This document shows, in pieces, positions 3,465-30,511 of a stretch of DNA of 31,443 nucleotides. Made by a program: the position numbers and the translations under genes. Source of the stretch: Gemmatimonadota bacterium (lineage in GTDB: Bacteria; Gemmatimonadota; Gemmatimonadetes; Palauibacterales; Palauibacteraceae); contig JAENXO010000001.1 in NCBI GenBank assembly GCA_016649455.1, positions 1-31,443 on the forward strand. Direction: 5' to 3'. Positions within the stretch are counted from its first letter, which is position 1; the number at the start of each line of letters is the position of its first letter. Under the pieces are notes generated by a model. That model was not told the DNA's origin. It did no database searches and worked only from the letters and a program-made list of their open reading frames with translations.

Positions 3465-4676
3465 ATGGAAATTCAGGAACTCCAGGGTCACATTCGTGAA
3501 CTGGCATCGCTGCCCGAGACCCGGTCTCCGGTCGTCAGCTGCTACTTGCGGGTCGAAGGCGGACGCCTGAGGCACCGCAGGACATTCATGAACCGGGTCG
3601 AGGAGCTCAGGCGGAGCTTTGCAGGAGAGGCTGCGGAGCTGTTCGAGGAAGCTCTAGAGCCGATCGAGCGGTTCCTCTCGGGAGAGTTGCATCGAGGCTC
3701 GAAGGGCGTGGCCGTCTTCTCACGGGCCGGGCGACAGCCTTTCTTCCTGGCCCTCCAGTTCTACGTCCCGCTGCCCACGTGGATAGCGGCTGACACCCTG
3801 CCGAACATCTACCACCTCGTCGAGCTCAAAGACACGTACTGGCGGTTCGTCGTGCTGGTTTGCTCGCAGGACACAGCCCGCATCGTTTCGGTGAACCTGG
3901 GTGCCGTGACGCTCGACTTGCTCCGCGAGAGACCCGAGCTGCGCCAGCGCGTGGGTCGCGAATGGACCAAGGAGCATTTTCGAAAGCACCGCACGACACG
4001 CATCCAGCAGTTTGTCGGCGACTCGGTCAAGGCGCTGTCCGAAGTGATGACAGCCGGAAGCTACGATCACCTGATCCTGGCCGGAGATCCGAAGATGACA
4101 GCGATGGTGAGAAGGGCGCTGCCTTCACACGTGGCCGCGCGACTCTCCGGCGTCATCCGAAAGCCGGGACGAACCGGGGCGCAAGACGTAGTGGCCGAGA
4201 GTATCGCGTCCTTCGTCGAGGCGGAGAACAGGGAATCGCAGGCTACGGCGGAGGAGCTGCAGCGAAAGCTCCGCACCGGGGGGCTCGCTGTCGCTGGAAC
4301 ACGCTCATCATTCTTCGCGCTGAAGCGAGGTCAGGTCGAGACTCTCGTAATGGATGCGGAGTACTCACCGCGTCCGGGATGGGTGTGCCGTGGTTGCCGC
4401 GTCGAGCGGACAGCTGAGCAGTGGCCGAAGAAATGCCCGGCGTGCGGTTCGAACTCGCTGGAAGACCTCAACATCAGGGAGGCCATGCTGCGGCTGGCCG
4501 AACAGCGCGGATGTCAGGTGGAGCTGGTGCGTGACAGCGCAACGCTGAGGCGACTTGGGGGCGTCGGGTGTCTTCTTCGCTTCCGTCCCGGGCGGGGGGG
4601 GAAGACCCGGCAGCAGGACAGGACCCGACCCGAGCGTGGGTGGCGGGGGACAGCTCGCATTCCGGCTCCGGTGTAG
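3465..4676 (+). CDS. Bacterial archaeo-eukaryotic release factor (baeRF/eRF1/Pelota-like) protein with Zn-ribbon insert
   Basis: Three-domain eRF1-like layout: SPVVSCYL...SKGVAVFS, YDHLILAGDP, GQVETLVM...CRGC...CPAC...VELV...LGGVGCLLRF; GGGAGG RBS before ATG 3465. Confidence 0.78.
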   Translation: MEIQELQGHIRELASLPETRSPVVSCYLRVEGGRLRHRRTFMNRVEELRRSFAGEAAELFEEALEPIERFLSGELHRGSKGVAVFSRAGRQPFFLALQFYVPLPTWIAADTLPNIYHLVELKDTYWRFVVLVCSQDTARIVSVNLGAVTLDLLRERPELRQRVGREWTKEHFRKHRTTRIQQFVGDSVKALSEVMTAGSYDHLILAGDPKMTAMVRRALPSHVAARLSGVIRKPGRTGAQDVVAESIASFVEAENRESQATAEELQRKLRTGGLAVAGTRSSFFALKRGQVETLVMDAEYSPRPGWVCRGCRVERTAEQWPKKCPACGSNSLEDLNIREAMLRLAEQRGCQVELVRDSATLRRLGGVGCLLRFRPGRGGKTRQQDRTRPERGWRGTARIPAPV

Positions 4677-4739
4677 CCGCCGTCGAAGCCCACGAGGTGG
4701 CCGTCCGCCGACACGCGAACACCTTGAACACGGACAGCC

Positions 4740-6416
4740 ATGGATCTCTGGGCAGCGCTGCTGAACATTCTGATTCTGCTCGCCGCGGCCATCGTTCTCG
4801 GTGCGCTGTGCGAACGCTTCAGGCTGAGTCCGCTGCTCGGATACCTCCTGGCCGGCGCATTGCTCGGTCCCAATGCGTTCGACCTGCTGCCGAGCCACGA
4901 GACCGTGACCGCGATTGCCGAGTTGGGCGTCGCGCTCCTGCTGTTCACCATCGGCCTCGAATTTTCGTGGCGACGACTTCGAGCCATCGGTCCAGTGGCC
5001 CTCGGCGGTGGCACCCTTCAGGTGGTGCTCACGGCCGCGATAACGGCGGGAATCTGCCTGGTTGTCGGGCTCCGCCCACGCACCTCGGTCGCCTTCGGGG
5101 CTGTGATCGCCTTGAGCAGCACTGCCGCGGTCCTGCAGCTTCTCGCGACCCGGGCCGAGATCGACACAGTTCACGGGCGTTACGCGGTGGGGATCCTCCT
5201 GTTGCAGGACATCGCAGTCGTGCCGCTCGTGCTGCTGATCGCGGTCCTGAGCAGCGGCGGTTCGATCGCCGAGGTCGGCTGGGGTCTTACCCGAGCAGCG
5301 GGGGCGGCGGCGATCCTCGTCGGCGCCCTCCACCTGCTGCTCAACCATGCACTGCCGGTACTCCTCGGTGCCAGAATCGCCGAGCGGTACGGCGACCTGC
5401 CGATCCTCCTCGCGGTTGTCACGCCACTGGGGGCGGCATGGATGTCGCATCAGTTGGGATTCTCACCCGCACTCGGGGCTTTCGCAGCGGGCTTGCTACT
5501 GGCCGAATCTCCGTTTTCCACCCAGATCCGCTCCGACATTATTCCGTTCCGAACGCTCTTCGTGACCCTGTTCTTCTGTTCCATCGGGCTGCTCAGCAAC
5601 CCGGCGTGGGTTGCCGAGCACTGGCTCCTCCTGGCGGGCGTCGTGGCCGCAATCGTGATCGGGAAGGCGGTGGTGACCACTGGCGTCGTCCGACTCTTCG
5701 GCAGACCGATCGGCCCGTCACTCGCGACCGGAATCGTCCTCGCTCAAGTCGGAGAATTCTCGCTGGTCATCGCCGTGGTCGCCCGACAGGGAGGGTTGAT
5801 CGGGCTCGGAGAGTTCGATTTGATCGTCGCTGCGATGATAGCGACGCTGTTTTTCACACCGTTTCTCGTGGGACTCGCGCCGCAGATGGCTCGGGTCGTC
5901 GGTGGGCGCTTATCGCTCTCCTCGAGCATGGCAGAGGGTCCAAACGGGAGACCTGGTGTGCCGGAGACGTTTCGCGATCACATCGTGATCGTCGGTTTCG
6001 GACCGGCCGGGCAAAGGGTCGCAGAGCTGATGATGGCCGAGCGCGGTCCTGACATACTCGTCGTGGAACTGGCAAATCGCACGGCGGAACTCGCGCAAGG
6101 CTACGGACTTCGGGCCCTCATTGGAGACGCTACGCGTGAAGAGGTCCTCACACGCCTGCATGTCGGGACAGCAGCAGTTGTTGTAATCACGATCCCGGAT
6201 CCATCGACCGCCCGGCGCATCATCCAGCAGGTGCGCGCTCTCGCGCCCGATACCCAGATCATCGTGCGCTCCAGGTATCATATTCACCGCTGGCAACTGG
6301 AGATGGCCGGAGCAGACGCTGTCGTCGATGAGGAACAGGAAGTCGGCATCCAGATCGCCAGGGAGGTGCGCCACCGGCTTGCTGATAGAACTGGCCAGTC
6401 CTCGCGGGCTGACTGA
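4740..6416 (+). CDS. CPA2 cation:proton antiporter with C-terminal TrkA-N (KefC/YbaL-like)
   Basis: About 12-13 TM helices; AELGVALLLFTIGLEFS, LSSTAAV, GILLLQDIAVVP, LAQVGEFSLV; Rossmann-type IVIVGFGPAG and GDATREEVL. Confidence 0.93.
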   Translation: MDLWAALLNILILLAAAIVLGALCERFRLSPLLGYLLAGALLGPNAFDLLPSHETVTAIAELGVALLLFTIGLEFSWRRLRAIGPVALGGGTLQVVLTAAITAGICLVVGLRPRTSVAFGAVIALSSTAAVLQLLATRAEIDTVHGRYAVGILLLQDIAVVPLVLLIAVLSSGGSIAEVGWGLTRAAGAAAILVGALHLLLNHALPVLLGARIAERYGDLPILLAVVTPLGAAWMSHQLGFSPALGAFAAGLLLAESPFSTQIRSDIIPFRTLFVTLFFCSIGLLSNPAWVAEHWLLLAGVVAAIVIGKAVVTTGVVRLFGRPIGPSLATGIVLAQVGEFSLVIAVVARQGGLIGLGEFDLIVAAMIATLFFTPFLVGLAPQMARVVGGRLSLSSSMAEGPNGRPGVPETFRDHIVIVGFGPAGQRVAELMMAERGPDILVVELANRTAELAQGYGLRALIGDATREEVLTRLHVGTAAVVVITIPDPSTARRIIQQVRALAPDTQIIVRSRYHIHRWQLEMAGADAVVDEEQEVGIQIAREVRHRLADRTGQSSRAD

Positions 6417-26378: not shown

Positions 26379-26408
26379 TTGGCCGATGTAGCTACATGAC
26401 GCTACATT
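26379..26408 (+). promoter_or_regulatory. TA promoter and antitoxin operator
   Basis: Perfect palindrome ATGTAGCTACAT (26386-97) plus a second GCTACAT (26401-07); TTGGCC-18nt-TACATT. Confidence 0.7.
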
Positions 26409-26414
26409 GTCCGC

Positions 26415-26705
26415 ATGAAAGCCGTGGGAATACGAGAATTGAAGAACCGCCTCAGCGAGTACATCCGCCTCGTACGGGCCGGCGAGACGGTCCTGGTGAC
26501 AGATCGCGGCGTGGTGGTGGCCGAGCTGCGGCCGCCCGGCACGCCGACGGCGGAAGACTCGCATCCCCTGCTGACCATGGCTGTGCGAGAAGGGCGGGCC
26601 CGGGCCGGTGCGCCAAACCGACCGGATCTGTATCCCGAGCTGGCAAAGGTCCTTCCCGAAGGCACCGCGCTTCGGTGGCTCGACGAATCCCGGGCCGACC
26701 GGTGA
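26415..26705 (+). CDS. Phd/YefM-family antitoxin
   Basis: MKAVGIRELKNRLSEYIRLVRAGETVLVTDRGVVVAEL. Confidence 0.92.
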   Translation: MKAVGIRELKNRLSEYIRLVRAGETVLVTDRGVVVAELRPPGTPTAEDSHPLLTMAVREGRARAGAPNRPDLYPELAKVLPEGTALRWLDESRADR

Positions 26706-27130
26706 TTCTCTACGCTGAATCCAGCGCCGTCCTGGCCTGGCTGCTTGCCCAGGAGCACGCCGCCGAGGTCGGCAACATCCTTGCCGAAGCCGAGCTCATC
26801 CTGTCGTCCGACCTCACGCTGCTGGAGTGTGAGCGCGTGCTGGTGCGCGGGAGCGCGACGGGCGAACTGTCAGAGGGTGAGGTGACGAATCGGCAGGTGA
26901 TCCTTCGAACCGCCGCACAGCACTGGATGCTGCTGGGATTCACACCTGCCGTCATCGAGCGCGCTCAGCGGCCCTTTCCGAACGAGCCGGTTCGCACCCT
27001 GGATGCACTGCACCTGGCGTTCGCACTCGAGGCGAAGCGGATCATACCGGAAGTCAGGCTTCTGAGCCTGGATCGACGTATTTGGGAGACGGCGCGTCAG
27101 CTGGGGCTGGAGCTCACTCCTCAACAATAG
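26702..27130 (+). CDS. vapC: PIN-domain (VapC) toxin
   Basis: True start GTG 26702 (GTGA overlap with the antitoxin stop); YAESSAV, LTLLEC, RTLDALHLA, LSLD acidic motifs. Confidence 0.88.
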   Translation: MILYAESSAVLAWLLAQEHAAEVGNILAEAELILSSDLTLLECERVLVRGSATGELSEGEVTNRQVILRTAAQHWMLLGFTPAVIERAQRPFPNEPVRTLDALHLAFALEAKRIIPEVRLLSLDRRIWETARQLGLELTPQQ

Positions 27131-27704
27131 CGCTCGAAGCCATCCACTGCCCGGCGGCCACGTCCGCCACGAGCCCGACCATGAGCTCCACTGCCTCCGT
27201 ATCCGACAGCCCGTGGTCGGTCAGGGAGCGCCAGGTGTAGAAGCCGAGGGCATGGCCGACCCCGGCACGCACCAGTCGCTGGGAGTCGCTGCTCACACCC
27301 CACCCGGCCGAAAGTCCTCCGGCTACCTCCCGCATGTATTCCCACAACGGCTTCATCACCTCAGCGAGTTCCGGCATCTCGGACTCGTCCCGCAGGATAC
27401 TCGCCAGCATCGGGGCGCCACCCCGGAAGAAGTCGTAGAGCCCCCTCAACGCCGTTTCCAGTCGGTCGCGGGGATCCCCGATGCCGGTCCATGTCGCCGG
27501 ATCGGGTAGAGGATGGTCCTCGAACCAGTGGGAGGAGCATGCGCCAAGCAACGCCCGGTCGTCGGGAAAGTGCCGATAGACGGTGAGCCGCTGGACTCCA
27601 GCCCGCTCCGCGATCGCCGTGACCGTAGTGGCCACCGGGCCGATCTCCTCGTGCAGATCGACGACGGCCTCCACGATGCGTTGCCTCGTATCGTTCACGC
27701 CCAT
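27114..27704 (-). CDS. TetR/AcrR-family transcriptional regulator
   Basis: TRQRIVEAVVDL...TTVTAIAERAGVQRLTVYRHFP HTH; likely start ATG 27704; 3' end overlaps vapC by 17 nt. Confidence 0.92.
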   Translation of the reverse strand: MGVNDTRQRIVEAVVDLHEEIGPVATTVTAIAERAGVQRLTVYRHFPDDRALLGACSSHWFEDHPLPDPATWTGIGDPRDRLETALRGLYDFFRGGAPMLASILRDESEMPELAEVMKPLWEYMREVAGGLSAGWGVSSDSQRLVRAGVGHALGFYTWRSLTDHGLSDTEAVELMVGLVADVAAGQWMASSAIVEE

Positions 27705-27707
27705 GTT

Positions 27708-27725
27708 GTGAACATATCTGTTTAC
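27708..27725. promoter_or_regulatory. TetR operator 1 (imperfect palindrome)
   Basis: GTGAACA-tatc-TGTTTAC, overlapping the predicted tetR -10 box. Confidence 0.75.
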
Positions 27726-27773
27726 TCGCACTTGACAAGTCTTGCCAGTATGGGCGACAGTGGACTTATGCTA

Positions 27774-27791
27774 GTGAACATTACTGTTCAC
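27774..27791. promoter_or_regulatory. TetR operator 2 (perfect palindrome)
   Basis: GTGAACA-ttac-TGTTCAC, immediately after a TATGCT -10-like box (27767-72). Confidence 0.8.
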
Positions 27792-27847: not shown

Positions 27848-28774
27848 ATGCACGGCGAGAAGATGCGCAGCAAGGCGGGGCCTGGCAGCATGCCGAGTCA
27901 CATTCCTTATCTGGTCCTGGTGCTCGTCGCGATGGTCGCGGCAGTCACCCTGCAGTCCTGTTCGCCGGGAGAGGCCTCTGAGCCGGATCCGTACCAGGGC
28001 GATTCGGCCGAACTCGGCACCGGGACCGTGAGCACGTACGTCCAGACGGATGCTGCGGGCGAGATCAAGTCGATCGGGGTGCGTCTCTCAGCGGCGGCCC
28101 TCGAGAGCTTCCCGCTCGAGCTCGATGGAACGGCTCCGTGCTTCGACGTCGATGGGGACGGCACCGAGGATCCGCATACCGAGTGCTTCATGATGCTGCG
28201 TCGGGATCTCGACCTGCCGAGTGCGACAGCGCAGGCCATGGCCCCGTTCGGGTACGTGCAGTTCAACTACAATCCGCACGGCCATCCTGCGCCGGCACCA
28301 CCCGTGTACGCGAAACCGCACTTCGACTTCCACTTCTATCTCGTCGGCCTGGACGACGTGAAGGAAATCCGAACCGGCACGTGCGGATTCTTCATCGATT
28401 GCGATGTGTACGAGACGGCGCGCATTCCTGTACCGGACAGATACATGCCGCCGGCCTACATCGAGGTGGGAGCGGCAGCCGGGGAAGAGGGCAATCACCT
28501 GCTGCTCTCCACGGCGCCCGAACTGGGTGATCCGCCCGCAGACTTCACGCAGACCTTCATCTTCGGCTCATATGACGGGCACATCATCTTCTACGAGCCG
28601 ATGATCGCCGTATCCGTGTTCATTGAAAGCCTGGACGAATGTCACGAAATCGCGCGGCCGACAGCCTGGGAAGTCGCGGGGCCGTATCCGACGCAATACT
28701 GCATGCGCTACCTGCCGGGGGAAGAGGCGTATACGGTGTCGCTGGAGTCGTTTGTCCGACGGGAGGCCAACTGA
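27848..28774 (+). CDS. DUF5602/TTHB210-like His-rich lipoprotein
   Basis: AGGAG RBS; lipobox-like LQSC; GTGTVSTYV...IGVRLS...L; NPHGHP...YAKPHFDFHFY...GNH...IFGSYDGHIIFYEPMI. Confidence 0.72.
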   Translation: MHGEKMRSKAGPGSMPSHIPYLVLVLVAMVAAVTLQSCSPGEASEPDPYQGDSAELGTGTVSTYVQTDAAGEIKSIGVRLSAAALESFPLELDGTAPCFDVDGDGTEDPHTECFMMLRRDLDLPSATAQAMAPFGYVQFNYNPHGHPAPAPPVYAKPHFDFHFYLVGLDDVKEIRTGTCGFFIDCDVYETARIPVPDRYMPPAYIEVGAAAGEEGNHLLLSTAPELGDPPADFTQTFIFGSYDGHIIFYEPMIAVSVFIESLDECHEIARPTAWEVAGPYPTQYCMRYLPGEEAYTVSLESFVRREAN

Positions 28775-28777
28775 CGA

Positions 28778-29356
28778 ATGGCGAACATACTGACGATTGT
28801 ACCGGAACAGGCCAAGGGCGTTCGGAAGCTGTTCTTCCGCTGGGTTCAGCGCCAGTACGGAGGTGTCGTGCCGGGTGTATACCAGGTGCTTGCCGTCGAT
28901 CTCAAGGTGGCTCGACCGGCCGGCGCCCTGTACAACCACCTTCATCTTCGGAAGTCGTCGTCAATCAGCAGACTGCAGCGGGAGATGCTGGCCACCGTGG
29001 TCAACGGCAAGGTGGGTGGAGCCCCCTGACTGGGTCTCCATACGGCGGCGGTTCGCCGCCTTTCCGGCGATGAGCATCTCGGCTTCGAGTTCGCGACGAA
29101 CTGGCCCGAGTATGATCTGGATGACAAGACGCGCGCGTTGCTCAGTTACGCCAGCAAACTCACGGAGTCTCCGAGCTTCGTGGGAGAAGAAGACATCGCG
29201 ACGTTGAGGGAGTGCGGCTGGAGCGAGCGCGAGGTCTGGGAGATCACCGCGCTCGCGTCCTTCTTCAACTTCAGCGGACGGATGGAAGCGGCCTCCGGTC
29301 TGCCGCCGGATGAGATTCCGGAGGATGCCGCGATTGCCGAGGCAGGGGGGAAGTAG
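28778..29356 (+). CDS. AhpD/CMD-like peroxidase-related selenoprotein (192 aa; Sec at codon 84, TGA 29027-29029)
   Basis: The two track ORFs are in the same frame; the sequence across the TGA (EMLATVVNGKVGGAP-U-LGLH) aligns without gaps to the AhpD motif ExIAxxVSxxNxCxxCxxxH; continuous AhpD-like sequence to FFNFSGR; SECIS-like hairpin follows. Confidence 0.85.
29030..29067 (+). promoter_or_regulatory. Bacterial SECIS element
   Basis: Upper stem GGCGGCG(29044-50)/CGCCGCC(29054-60) with G-initiated loop GUU, 21 nt after the UGA; lower stem CUGGG(29030-34)/UCCGG(29063-67). Confidence 0.75.
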
Positions 29357-29359
29357 ACG

Positions 29360-30511
29360 TCAGGATTTTGGGATCTCCTTCTCCGGATCGATGAACGGCT
29401 TGGGAATCACCGCGGCTCCACGCACATCTCCGTCCGCAACGGTCACCGTCAGCCGGATGCCGAGCTCAGCCATGTCTGCCGGCACCATTGCATACCCGAT
29501 GTTCTTCTCGAGCCGCGGCGAATAGATCGCTGACGTGATGAAGCCCACTTCGGATCCGTCCAGGTGAACAGGCCAGCGGGTCATGTTCAGGTCCAGCGGC
29601 TCGCCGTCGATCTCCACGCCGGCCAGCAGTCGACGGGGTCCCTCGGCCTTGATCCGTTCGAGCGCCGTCCTGCCGATGAAGTCGGCCTCTTGCTCGAGAT
29701 TCACCTGCCAGCCGAGCCCGACCTCGAATGGGTTTGTGTCCAGCGTCATGTCGATACCGTAGTTGAGGATTCCTGCTTCAATACGCCGGATGTCTGAAGG
29801 TCCGGTCGGACCGATGCCGAATTCCCGGCCCGCTTCCATCACCCTCTCCCACAGATCGACTCCGCGGCTCCCGTCGCGCAGGTACAGCTCGTAGCCAACC
29901 TCCCCGGTCCAGCCCGTCCGCGTGACGATCACTGGGATGCCGTCGATCTGCTTCTCGAGGAACCAGTAATACCTGAGATCCCTGATATCATCGCCGAACA
30001 GTCTCGCTACCACCTCCTGCGACCTGGGGCCCTGAACCTGCATTGGCGAGACATCCGGTTCGCAGATCTTCACGTCCAGGCCTGAGTTGAGCGCGACTCC
30101 CTTTGCCCAGAGAAGCACATCGCTGTCGGCCAGAGCGAGCCAGAAGTGGTTCTCGCCGAGGCGAAGCAGCACGGGGTCGTTGATGATACCGCCGTCTTCG
30201 GCCGTGATGATCACGTACTTGCCCTGCCCAACAGCGCACTTCGTCAGGTCTCTCGGGGTGAGCATGTTGGTGAACGTGAAGGCGTCCGGCCCGCTGATCT
30301 CGACCTGGCGCTCGACGCTGACGTCCCAGACTGTCACGTCGTTCAGCAGCTTCCAGTACTCGGCTTCGAGATCACCGTAGCACGTCGGCAAGAACATGTG
30401 GTTGTACACCGTGTAGCGCTGCGCCCCGTATTTCAGCGTCGCCTCGAAGAACGGCGATCTGCGCAGGCGCGCGCCGCGCTGGATGAGCCTCATGTCGAAC
30501 GTGGCGGTCAT
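29360..30511 (-). CDS. GcvT-family aminomethyltransferase, DmdA-like
   Basis: RRSPF...YTVYNHMFLP, WDVSVERQVEISGPDA, INDPVLL, EPDVSPMQVQGP, RTGWTGEVGYELY, RIEAGILNYG; AAGGAG RBS. Confidence 0.88.
   Translation of the reverse strand: MTATFDMRLIQRGARLRRSPFFEATLKYGAQRYTVYNHMFLPTCYGDLEAEYWKLLNDVTVWDVSVERQVEISGPDAFTFTNMLTPRDLTKCAVGQGKYVIITAEDGGIINDPVLLRLGENHFWLALADSDVLLWAKGVALNSGLDVKICEPDVSPMQVQGPRSQEVVARLFGDDIRDLRYYWFLEKQIDGIPVIVTRTGWTGEVGYELYLRDGSRGVDLWERVMEAGREFGIGPTGPSDIRRIEAGILNYGIDMTLDTNPFEVGLGWQVNLEQEADFIGRTALERIKAEGPRRLLAGVEIDGEPLDLNMTRWPVHLDGSEVGFITSAIYSPRLEKNIGYAMVPADMAELGIRLTVTVADGDVRGAAVIPKPFIDPEKEIPKS

Follow-up and report, generated by a model that had tools for sequence, protein, structure and literature searches.

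Positions 28778-29356 on the forward strand of the DNA stretch studied here, the 31,443 nucleotides (nt) that make up positions 1 to 31,443 of the Gemmatimonadota contig JAENXO010000001.1 (hereafter the window), almost certainly constitute a single functional gene for an AhpD-like selenoprotein of 192 residues, in which an in-frame UGA codon is decoded as selenocysteine (Sec; U) with the help of a selenocysteine insertion sequence (SECIS). Direct reading of the sequence places the open reading frames 28778-29029 and 29138-29356 in one frame, and the 108 nt between them (29030-29137) are free of stop codons and translate as LGLHTAAVRRLSGDEHLGFEFATNWPEYDLDDKTRALL, exactly as quoted in the earlier sequence-only note on this DNA (referred to here as the original prediction). 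In the read-through product, the TGA at 29027-29029 becomes U84 within the motif G81-A82-P83-U84-L85-G86-L87-H88. The explanation that we consider best overall, and regard as probable, joins this one Sec-containing gene to a catalytic mechanism that relies on Sec84 alone and on an external reductant, and to control by a TetR-family regulator.

The evidence that carries the reading of the TGA as a sense codon comes from its conservation. A homologue scan with one genome per species retrieved 151 related stretches, and our analyses use the best 80 loci, which together with the window make a set of 81 sequences. These 80 loci span more than ten phyla; the carriers are found among the Gemmatimonadota, Acidobacteriota, Ignavibacteriales, Calditrichaceae, Rubrobacteraceae, Acidimicrobiia, Desulfobulbaceae/Desulfocapsaceae, Myxococcales, Binatia, Anaerolineales, Bacillota, KSB1 and others. 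The codon in the U84 column is TGA in 81 of 81 sequences, the motif GGAPU[L]G[L]H is nearly invariant across them, and the pairwise protein identities within the set range from 52% to 97%. The N- and C-terminal parts of the protein lie in one frame, exactly one codon apart, at each of the 80 loci, and the match covers residues 1-189. Nucleotide identity at the three codon positions amounts to 0.76/0.84/0.46 overall, to 0.73/0.83/0.43 in the N-terminal half and to 0.79/0.84/0.48 in the C-terminal half; this similar pattern in both halves indicates purifying selection on one continuous coding frame, and a conserved start codon 3' of the TGA was not found among the 81 orthologues. Homologues that are consistently split into two genes, which had been named as a possible objection, were hence not encountered: the two halves always share one frame and show coding-type conservation. 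Glu69 and His88 are present in 81 of 81 sequences, and so is Gly81, which is encoded by all four glycine codons (GGC 34, GGG 24, GGA 17, GGT 6), a variety indicating that the glycine itself is under selection.

Homologues outside this set tell what kind of residue belongs at the UGA. Cysteine fills the U84 column in the relatives of known structure deposited in the PDB and in 68 CxxC database homologues, and a TGC codon at this place was confirmed at the DNA level in two loci (L101 and L105), so that the column holds either Cys or TGA, as had been anticipated. Full-length database homologues with a tryptophan in this column are TGA codons translated under genetic code 4, and many database matches of about 106 residues are C-terminal fragments that begin right after the TGA. 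GenBank records and gene callers report fragments of 79-108 residues, called "hypothetical protein" where they are named at all; the original prediction had foreseen just such an annotation as fragments or as a pseudogene.

A sequencing error at the critical codon is contradicted by independent data. DNA nearly identical to that of the window is present in sequencing runs from at least 11 studies of permafrost, sediment and soil. Contigs from three independent DNA studies bridge positions 29027-29029 without any difference, as does one contig from a metatranscriptome library, although this contig alone does not prove transcription. The bridging contigs include one from a divergent strain that carries 27 other substitutions in 301 nt, with synonymous changes near the site. 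The contigs read TGA throughout, and the TGC or TGG that might have been hidden behind an assembly error did not appear. Contigs from two other samples, X10 and the RNA library X19, match the gene closely and diverge from the window right after position 29349, which indicates related strains with a different downstream neighbour and fits a mobile, patchily distributed gene.

A bacterial SECIS is recognized in the bSECISearch literature as a stem-loop that follows right after the UGA, with G(U) in its apical loop and a suitable distance between the two. Downstream of the TGA, after a spacer of 14 nt, the window contains the hairpin GGCGGCG-GUU-CGCCGCC (29044-29060), which has a GC-rich stem of 5-7 base pairs and whose loop G lies 21 nt after the UGA. 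The hairpin overlaps the codons of the conserved peptide T-A-A-V-R-R-L, so that its bare conservation is uninformative; we therefore measured the synonymous codon entropy within the stem against that found where these amino acids occupy conserved columns elsewhere. Ala90 is encoded by GCG in 77 of 77 sequences (entropy 0, as opposed to 1.42-1.86 at ten other Ala columns), Thr89 by ACG in 59 of 65 (0.50, as opposed to 1.46-1.80 elsewhere), and Arg93 and Arg94 are restricted to CGC and CGT (0.89 and 0.57, as opposed to 1.68-2.26 elsewhere). The loop-facing third positions of Ala91 and Val92 vary freely, and the alternation of C and U in the Arg codons preserves G-C or G-U pairs. At three loci (L064, L078 and L080) Ala90 is replaced by Thr through a change of GCG to ACG, and the pairing partner becomes U, giving an A-U pair; L080 carries two adjacent compensated pairs in its stem. 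In the alignment 89% of the cells are paired, compared with 42-69% with slid partners; doubly changed, compensated cells number four, compared with 0.6 in shuffles, and none of 500 shuffles reached four. The five core pairs are retained in at least 99% of the sequences, and RNAalifold recovers the core of the hairpin. In the more distant Cys homologue P0122 (locus L105, TGC) the hairpin is absent from the equivalent place, while most of it remains in P0004, a close revertant to TGC. A scan of the window with Rfam at gathering thresholds gave zero matches. From the suppressed synonymous variation, the few compensatory changes and the absence in the Cys homologue we conclude that the SECIS-like hairpin which the original prediction had noticed exists, and we read it as a bacterial SECIS embedded in the coding sequence.

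The genome from which the window derives is represented by a fragmented assembly (658 contigs with a median length of 3.7 kb, 94% complete, only 28 tRNAs detected). It encodes selA (522.6 bits), selD (360.9 bits) and selB, the latter in two pieces at contig ends (N-terminal 228 bits, C-terminal 126 bits). The selD gene itself contains one in-frame TGA (contig C318, positions 4061-4987, reverse strand, of genome G000; locus L011); the SelD protein of this organism is, by its sequence, probably a selenoprotein as well, and this second in-frame TGA independently supports the decoding of UGA as Sec in this organism. A tRNA-Sec gene (selC) was not found in this fragmented genome with Rfam model RF01852, with ARAGORN or by blastn, for which four tRNA-Sec genes of other carriers served as queries; the best Rfam candidate scored 38.5 bits (cutoff 47) among the 150 of 592 candidates that were scored, and the contigs carrying selA, selB and selD gave no tRNA-Sec at a permissive Rfam threshold either. 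The missing tRNA-Sec is probably due to a gap in the assembly. Of the machinery whose presence had been proposed as a check, selA, selB and selD were thus recovered, and selC was not. Among five other carrier genomes from different phyla, four possess both selA and an ARAGORN-confirmed tRNA-SeC(tca), and the fifth is a metagenome-assembled genome of 2.8 Mb.

Two readings would dispense with selenocysteine altogether. If the TGA were a genuine stop, positions 28778-29356 would hold a pseudogene or two small genes (83 and about 72-108 residues), a view with which the fragments of 79-108 residues annotated by gene callers and in GenBank, and the failure to find tRNA-Sec in the organism's own assembly, would agree. 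We give it hardly any credence and reject it: the TGA recurs in 81 of 81 sequences at identities as low as 52% and as high as 97%, both halves are under purifying selection, the SECIS is present, and the stop would interrupt one compact domain halfway, on its catalytic residue and at the very column where homologues carry Cys. Alternatively, the TGA might be read as a standard residue (Trp, Gly or Cys) through a deviating genetic code or near-cognate read-through, as the tryptophan given in some code-4 database entries could suggest. This is equally remote, and we discard it too: the upstream gene of the same operon stops at TGA (28772-28774, 3 nt ahead of the selenoprotein ATG), the standard code is in use in the more than ten phyla to which the carriers belong, the hairpin, selA, selB and selD and the tRNA-Sec of other carriers point to Sec, and the homologous residue is Cys and not Trp.

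The read-through protein matches TIGR01926 ("peroxidase-related enzyme") over residues 25-178 with 109.7 bits (cutoff 81.8), and the Pfam CMD model with 21 bits, which is under its cutoff of 23 bits; the NCBIfam models NF041047 and NF041238 gave zero matches. A profile built from the protein and its homologues retrieved the solved structures 3c1l (4e-33), 2pfx (2e-31) and 6k40 and 2oyo (both about 3e-26), and it aligned G-A-P-U-L-G-L-H with HCYYCLTAH (3c1l), KCFYCLVAH (2pfx) and RCVYCAVSH (6k40). The AlphaFold2 model (mean predicted local distance difference test score 93.3, predicted template modelling score 0.90) is all-helical, with a helix comprising residues 82-96 that starts at the motif, and it places Sec84 in the first turn of this helix, at the position of the second motif Cys. 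Foldseek superimposed the model on 3c1l, 2pfx, 2prr, 6k40 and 2oyo with template modelling (TM) scores of 0.77-0.84 at 25-37% identity. In AhpD proteins, a proton relay is formed by Glu118-Cys130-Cys133-His137 (Mycobacterium tuberculosis AhpD) or Glu36-Cys48-Cys51-His55 (PA0269) (PMC3141380). The spacing of this relay (E, +12, C, +3, C, +4, H) recurs in residues E69, G81, U84 and H88, none of which varies within the clade. The solved structures and the relay spacing bear out the gap-free alignment of the original prediction, with the TGA at the second Cys, Gly at the first and the His retained. The complete Glu...C-x-x-C...His motif is absent, the first Cys being replaced by Gly in 81 of 81 sequences, and the protein may accordingly be described, by homology, as a TIGR01926 member with an incomplete motif. 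No Cys at all is present in 71 of the 81 clade proteins; the other ten, the window protein with its C146 among them, have one Cys at a non-conserved column.

To place the clade in its wider family, we used a quick maximum-likelihood tree (IQ-TREE, with support values from the Shimodaira-Hasegawa-like approximate likelihood ratio test, and midpoint-rooted for drawing only). Most of the family has the arrangement C-x-x-C...H (68 of the tabulated members), and one member (P0216) has the classic CxxU form. A single long branch (length 1.65, support 99) unites all forms without the first Cys and comprises 38 GxxU, six AxxC, two ExxC, two GxxC, one GxxL and one GxxG proteins. The GxxU group within it has 40 members (support 81), including the singletons P0004 (TGC) and P0008 (TTA), each of which is one base away from TGA. 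As judged from this tree, the loss of the first Cys appears to be a property of the whole subfamily, inside which one lineage uses Sec. The clade that had been proposed for the GxxC/GxxU forms was therefore recovered in so far as the GxxU proteins group together; the loss of the first Cys turned out to be shared with Cys-using sisters and is not specific to Sec.

P0004 (L101, 1501-2091), the only GxxC form found inside the Sec clade, has TGC in place of TGA with its hairpin largely intact and looks like a recent switch from Sec to Cys. P0008, present on four contigs (among them L103, 1501-2103, and L104, 115-717), has TTA (Leu) at this position and a weakened hairpin, lies about 1.5 kb upstream of a transposase gene, and may be an inactivated copy. 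In the Cys-using sisters the catalytic Cys is accompanied by another one nearby (all 8 AxxC proteins have C-x-x-x-H-C, and both ExxC proteins have C-S-C), and P0122 carries C84 and C106; this pattern is suggestive, as it fits the notion that an enzyme with Sec can do without an internal resolving residue. Taxonomic groups are intermixed in the tree, and the distribution of the gene within the Gemmatimonadota is patchy (6 of 301 sampled genomes, all with TGA), two observations that indicate horizontal spread. Four genomes of the same family (G063, G105, G201 and G214, genus g2) lack a GGAPU orthologue and contain a second, distant AhpD-like gene (32% identity) with one in-frame TGA, which may be of the classic CxxU type.

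AhpD-like proteins (COG2128/TIGR01926; "AhpD-like 1") have been catalogued as selenoproteins with the motif CxxU since the Sargasso Sea and Global Ocean Sampling surveys (PMC1088965, PMC2398784), and a 2026 review lists them again with the same motif (PMC13188914). For TIGR01926, PF02627, NF041047 and NF041238 the literature gives CxxU only, so that the established standing which the original prediction had ascribed to AhpD-like CxxU selenoproteins is confirmed. Literature searches turned up no AhpD-like selenoprotein described as GxxU or as free of Cys, and none of AhpD type from the Gemmatimonadota (BSepDB itself was not queried), and from its sequences the GxxU branch appears to be an undescribed variant inside this known selenoprotein family. 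It shares with the catalogued members the hidden Markov model family, Sec at the second motif position, the conserved His and a SECIS directly downstream; it differs from them in having GxxU in place of CxxU, with an invariant Gly in the first position, in the lack of any conserved Cys and in its phylogenetic position, on a separate long branch shared with Cys forms in which the first Cys is likewise missing.

Comparable likenesses and differences set the protein apart from its structural relatives. It has the fold and the Glu, second Cys and His positions of Mlr4105 (3c1l), the TM1040 protein (2pfx), Reut_A2532 (2prr), DR1765 (6k40) and the Dgeo protein (2oyo); unlike it, these proteins use two Cys and no selenium, and they can form an intramolecular disulfide, which the present protein cannot. 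With M. tuberculosis AhpD (1knc, 1gu9) it has the relay spacing and the general CMD-type helical architecture in common, but the TM score is only about 0.4, and AhpD is a two-domain trimer with AhpC as its partner and lipoamide-dependent recycling. Nor was the canonical linkage of AhpC and AhpD seen, an ahpC-type gene being no recurrent neighbour within about 3 kb at the 81 loci (unlinked peroxiredoxins were not searched). A precedent for the loss of the first Cys is provided by TTHA0727 of Thermus thermophilus, a member of the CMD family in which Ser takes the place of the first motif Cys (PMC3141380); unlike the selenoprotein described here, it is a Cys protein of a different, shorter CMD architecture.

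Public records give the gene in pieces or cut short, or read through under code 4, despite its wide occurrence: at least 80 species-level genomes from more than ten phyla contain it, as do many metagenomes from permafrost, soil and sediment. A TIGR01926 match combined with GGAPU and the hairpin offers a simple rule by which such mis-annotated genes can be recovered. The documented motif range of AhpD-like selenoproteins is thereby extended beyond CxxU, and the AhpD-fold enzymes with a lone Sec, set against sisters with Cys and a second Cys, constitute a natural contrast for what selenium gives beyond sulfur.

How might an enzyme without a resolving cysteine work? Glutathione peroxidase and 1-Cys peroxiredoxins have no internal resolving residue and are recycled by external thiols; with their one Sec or Cys nucleophile they can be viewed as functional analogues, but they have unrelated thioredoxin-type folds, and their likeness to the present protein is one of presumed mechanism only. 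By this analogy, the selenolate of Sec84 would act as the sole nucleophile, flanked by the retained Glu69/His88 relay; a hydroperoxide or an oxidized partner protein would convert it into a selenenic acid or a mixed Se-S bond; and an external reductant (thioredoxin, dihydrolipoamide or another dithiol, or else a thiol of low molecular weight) would recycle it, with the divergent TetR regulator making expression conditional. We lean towards this single-nucleophile mechanism with external recycling, with some reserve, and regard the need for an external reductant as reasonable. A more far-reaching and tentative proposal, which we would put at somewhat below even chances, sees the GGAPU clade as "one-selenol, zero-thiol" peroxidases or reductases on an AhpD scaffold, convergent with glutathione peroxidase, in which selenium is obligatory and replaces the resolving Cys by virtue of its resistance to over-oxidation and the easy reduction of the selenenic acid. 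If true, this would account for the presence of Sec in all 81 orthologues and the re-acquisition of a second Cys by the Cys-using sisters, and it would make the clade a natural system in which to ask why Sec is used in place of Cys.

Several observations weigh against the account given here. The missing tRNA-Sec does so weakly, and the covariation in the hairpin is modest, the peptide fixing most stem positions. The argument drawn from the sister proteins is based on only two or three independent Cys lineages. Within about 3 kb of the gene at the 81 loci, there is no recurrent neighbour encoding a peroxiredoxin, thioredoxin or reductase (unlinked peroxiredoxins were not searched). Finally, DR1765 is the only experimentally studied protein among the clade and its CxxC structural relatives, and it contributes to H2O2 tolerance via its CxxC motif (PMC8945050).

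The same selenoprotein might instead perform another nucleophilic chemistry, such as reductive dehalogenation, detoxification of electrophiles or the handling of metals or metalloids, possibly linked to the TTHB210-like lipoprotein encoded next to it. Structural matches include the CMD-fold debrominase Bmp8 (TM 0.69), TetR-type regulators, present at 32 of 80 loci, are typical of detoxification operons that respond to small molecules, no Prx or Trx partner genes were found nearby, and the length of the branch on which the first Cys was lost (1.65 changes per site) suggests that the function of the entire subfamily has changed. However, Bmp8 is only distantly similar (18% identity), the lipoprotein gene adjoins the selenoprotein gene in only about a quarter of the loci, the Glu/His relay of AhpD is kept, and the relatives of known structure that come closest (TM about 0.8, 25-37% identity) are AhpD-like, with DR1765 protecting against H2O2 through CxxC; on balance we think a different chemistry unlikely. 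The oxidized enzyme could also be resolved within an oligomer, by an intersubunit Sec84-Sec84 diselenide and not by an external thiol first. TIGR01926-type relatives crystallize with many chains (12 in 3c1l, 2prr and 6k40), so that the protein is probably oligomeric, and its chain offers no other conserved redox residue, but diselenide-resolving peroxidases are not an established mechanism in the AhpD-type fold, and we hold this route to be quite improbable. Recycling of a lone Sec84 by an external reductant is the mechanism that we retain as part of the overall explanation.

Table 1. Positions of the selenoprotein gene, of its functional elements and of two neighbouring genes in the window.
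Feature	Position	Strand	Basis and remarks
Complete selenoprotein gene, 192 codons	28778..29356	+	ATG 28778, Sec-UGA 29027, TAG 29354-29356; TIGR01926; 80 loci
GGAGG ribosome-binding site (predicted)	28762..28766	+	11 nt 5' of the ATG; sequence reading
Glu69 codon	28982..28984	+	Invariant (81/81); 12 residues ahead of G81
Active-site motif G81-A82-P83-U84-L85-G86-L87-H88, in place of C-x-x-C-x-x-x-H	29018..29041	+	Alignment to 3c1l, 2pfx, 6k40
UGA very probably read as selenocysteine (U84)	29027..29029	+	TGA in 81/81; Cys at this column in homologues; independent contigs without variant
Predicted SECIS hairpin: stem 29044-29050 / 29054-29060, apical loop G-U-U 29051-29053	29044..29060	+	Synonymous entropy, pairing, RNAalifold
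Upstream gene for a predicted lipoprotein, 308 residues, TTHB210-like (context, outside the enzyme)	27848..28774	+	Lipobox, Atlas
Divergent TetR-family regulator gene (context)	27114..27731	-	PF00440 TetR_N, 38.2 bits

Clustering the neighbours de novo within about 3 kb at the 81 loci showed that only TetR and lipoprotein genes recur (Table 1). The 308-residue lipoprotein has the lipobox LQSC and is assigned by Atlas to PF18197 (TTHB210-like) both by features (0.94) and by structure (TM 0.83), with zero matches in Pfam and NCBIfam; its gene and the selenoprotein gene are probably co-transcribed. A lipoprotein homologue adjoins the selenoprotein gene, either upstream or downstream, in 20 of 80 loci. 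The homologous TetR gene lies upstream in divergent orientation in 32 of 80 loci across phyla, and it is also found beside the Cys sister P0122; the TetR-family protein is a probable regulator of the selenoprotein operon. The TetR and lipoprotein genes are separated by 116 bp, within which a perfect palindrome, GTGAACA-N4-TGTTCAC, occupies positions 27774-27791; a second, imperfect copy at 27705-27725 overlaps the start of the TetR gene. This palindrome is a likely TetR operator; among the TetR-linked loci, a similar GAACA...TGTTC palindrome at the equivalent intergenic position was found only in three (L030, L055 and L086).

Two further genes flank this region of the window. Downstream and convergent to the selenoprotein gene, positions 29360-30511 (reverse strand) encode an aminomethyltransferase of the GcvT family, which scores 398 bits (cutoff 410) with the model for DmdA, the dimethylsulfoniopropionate (DMSP) demethylase. 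Just upstream of the 3' end of the TetR gene, and overlapping this end, an open reading frame at 26396-27130 (forward strand) encodes a protein of 244 residues with a C-terminal PIN domain.

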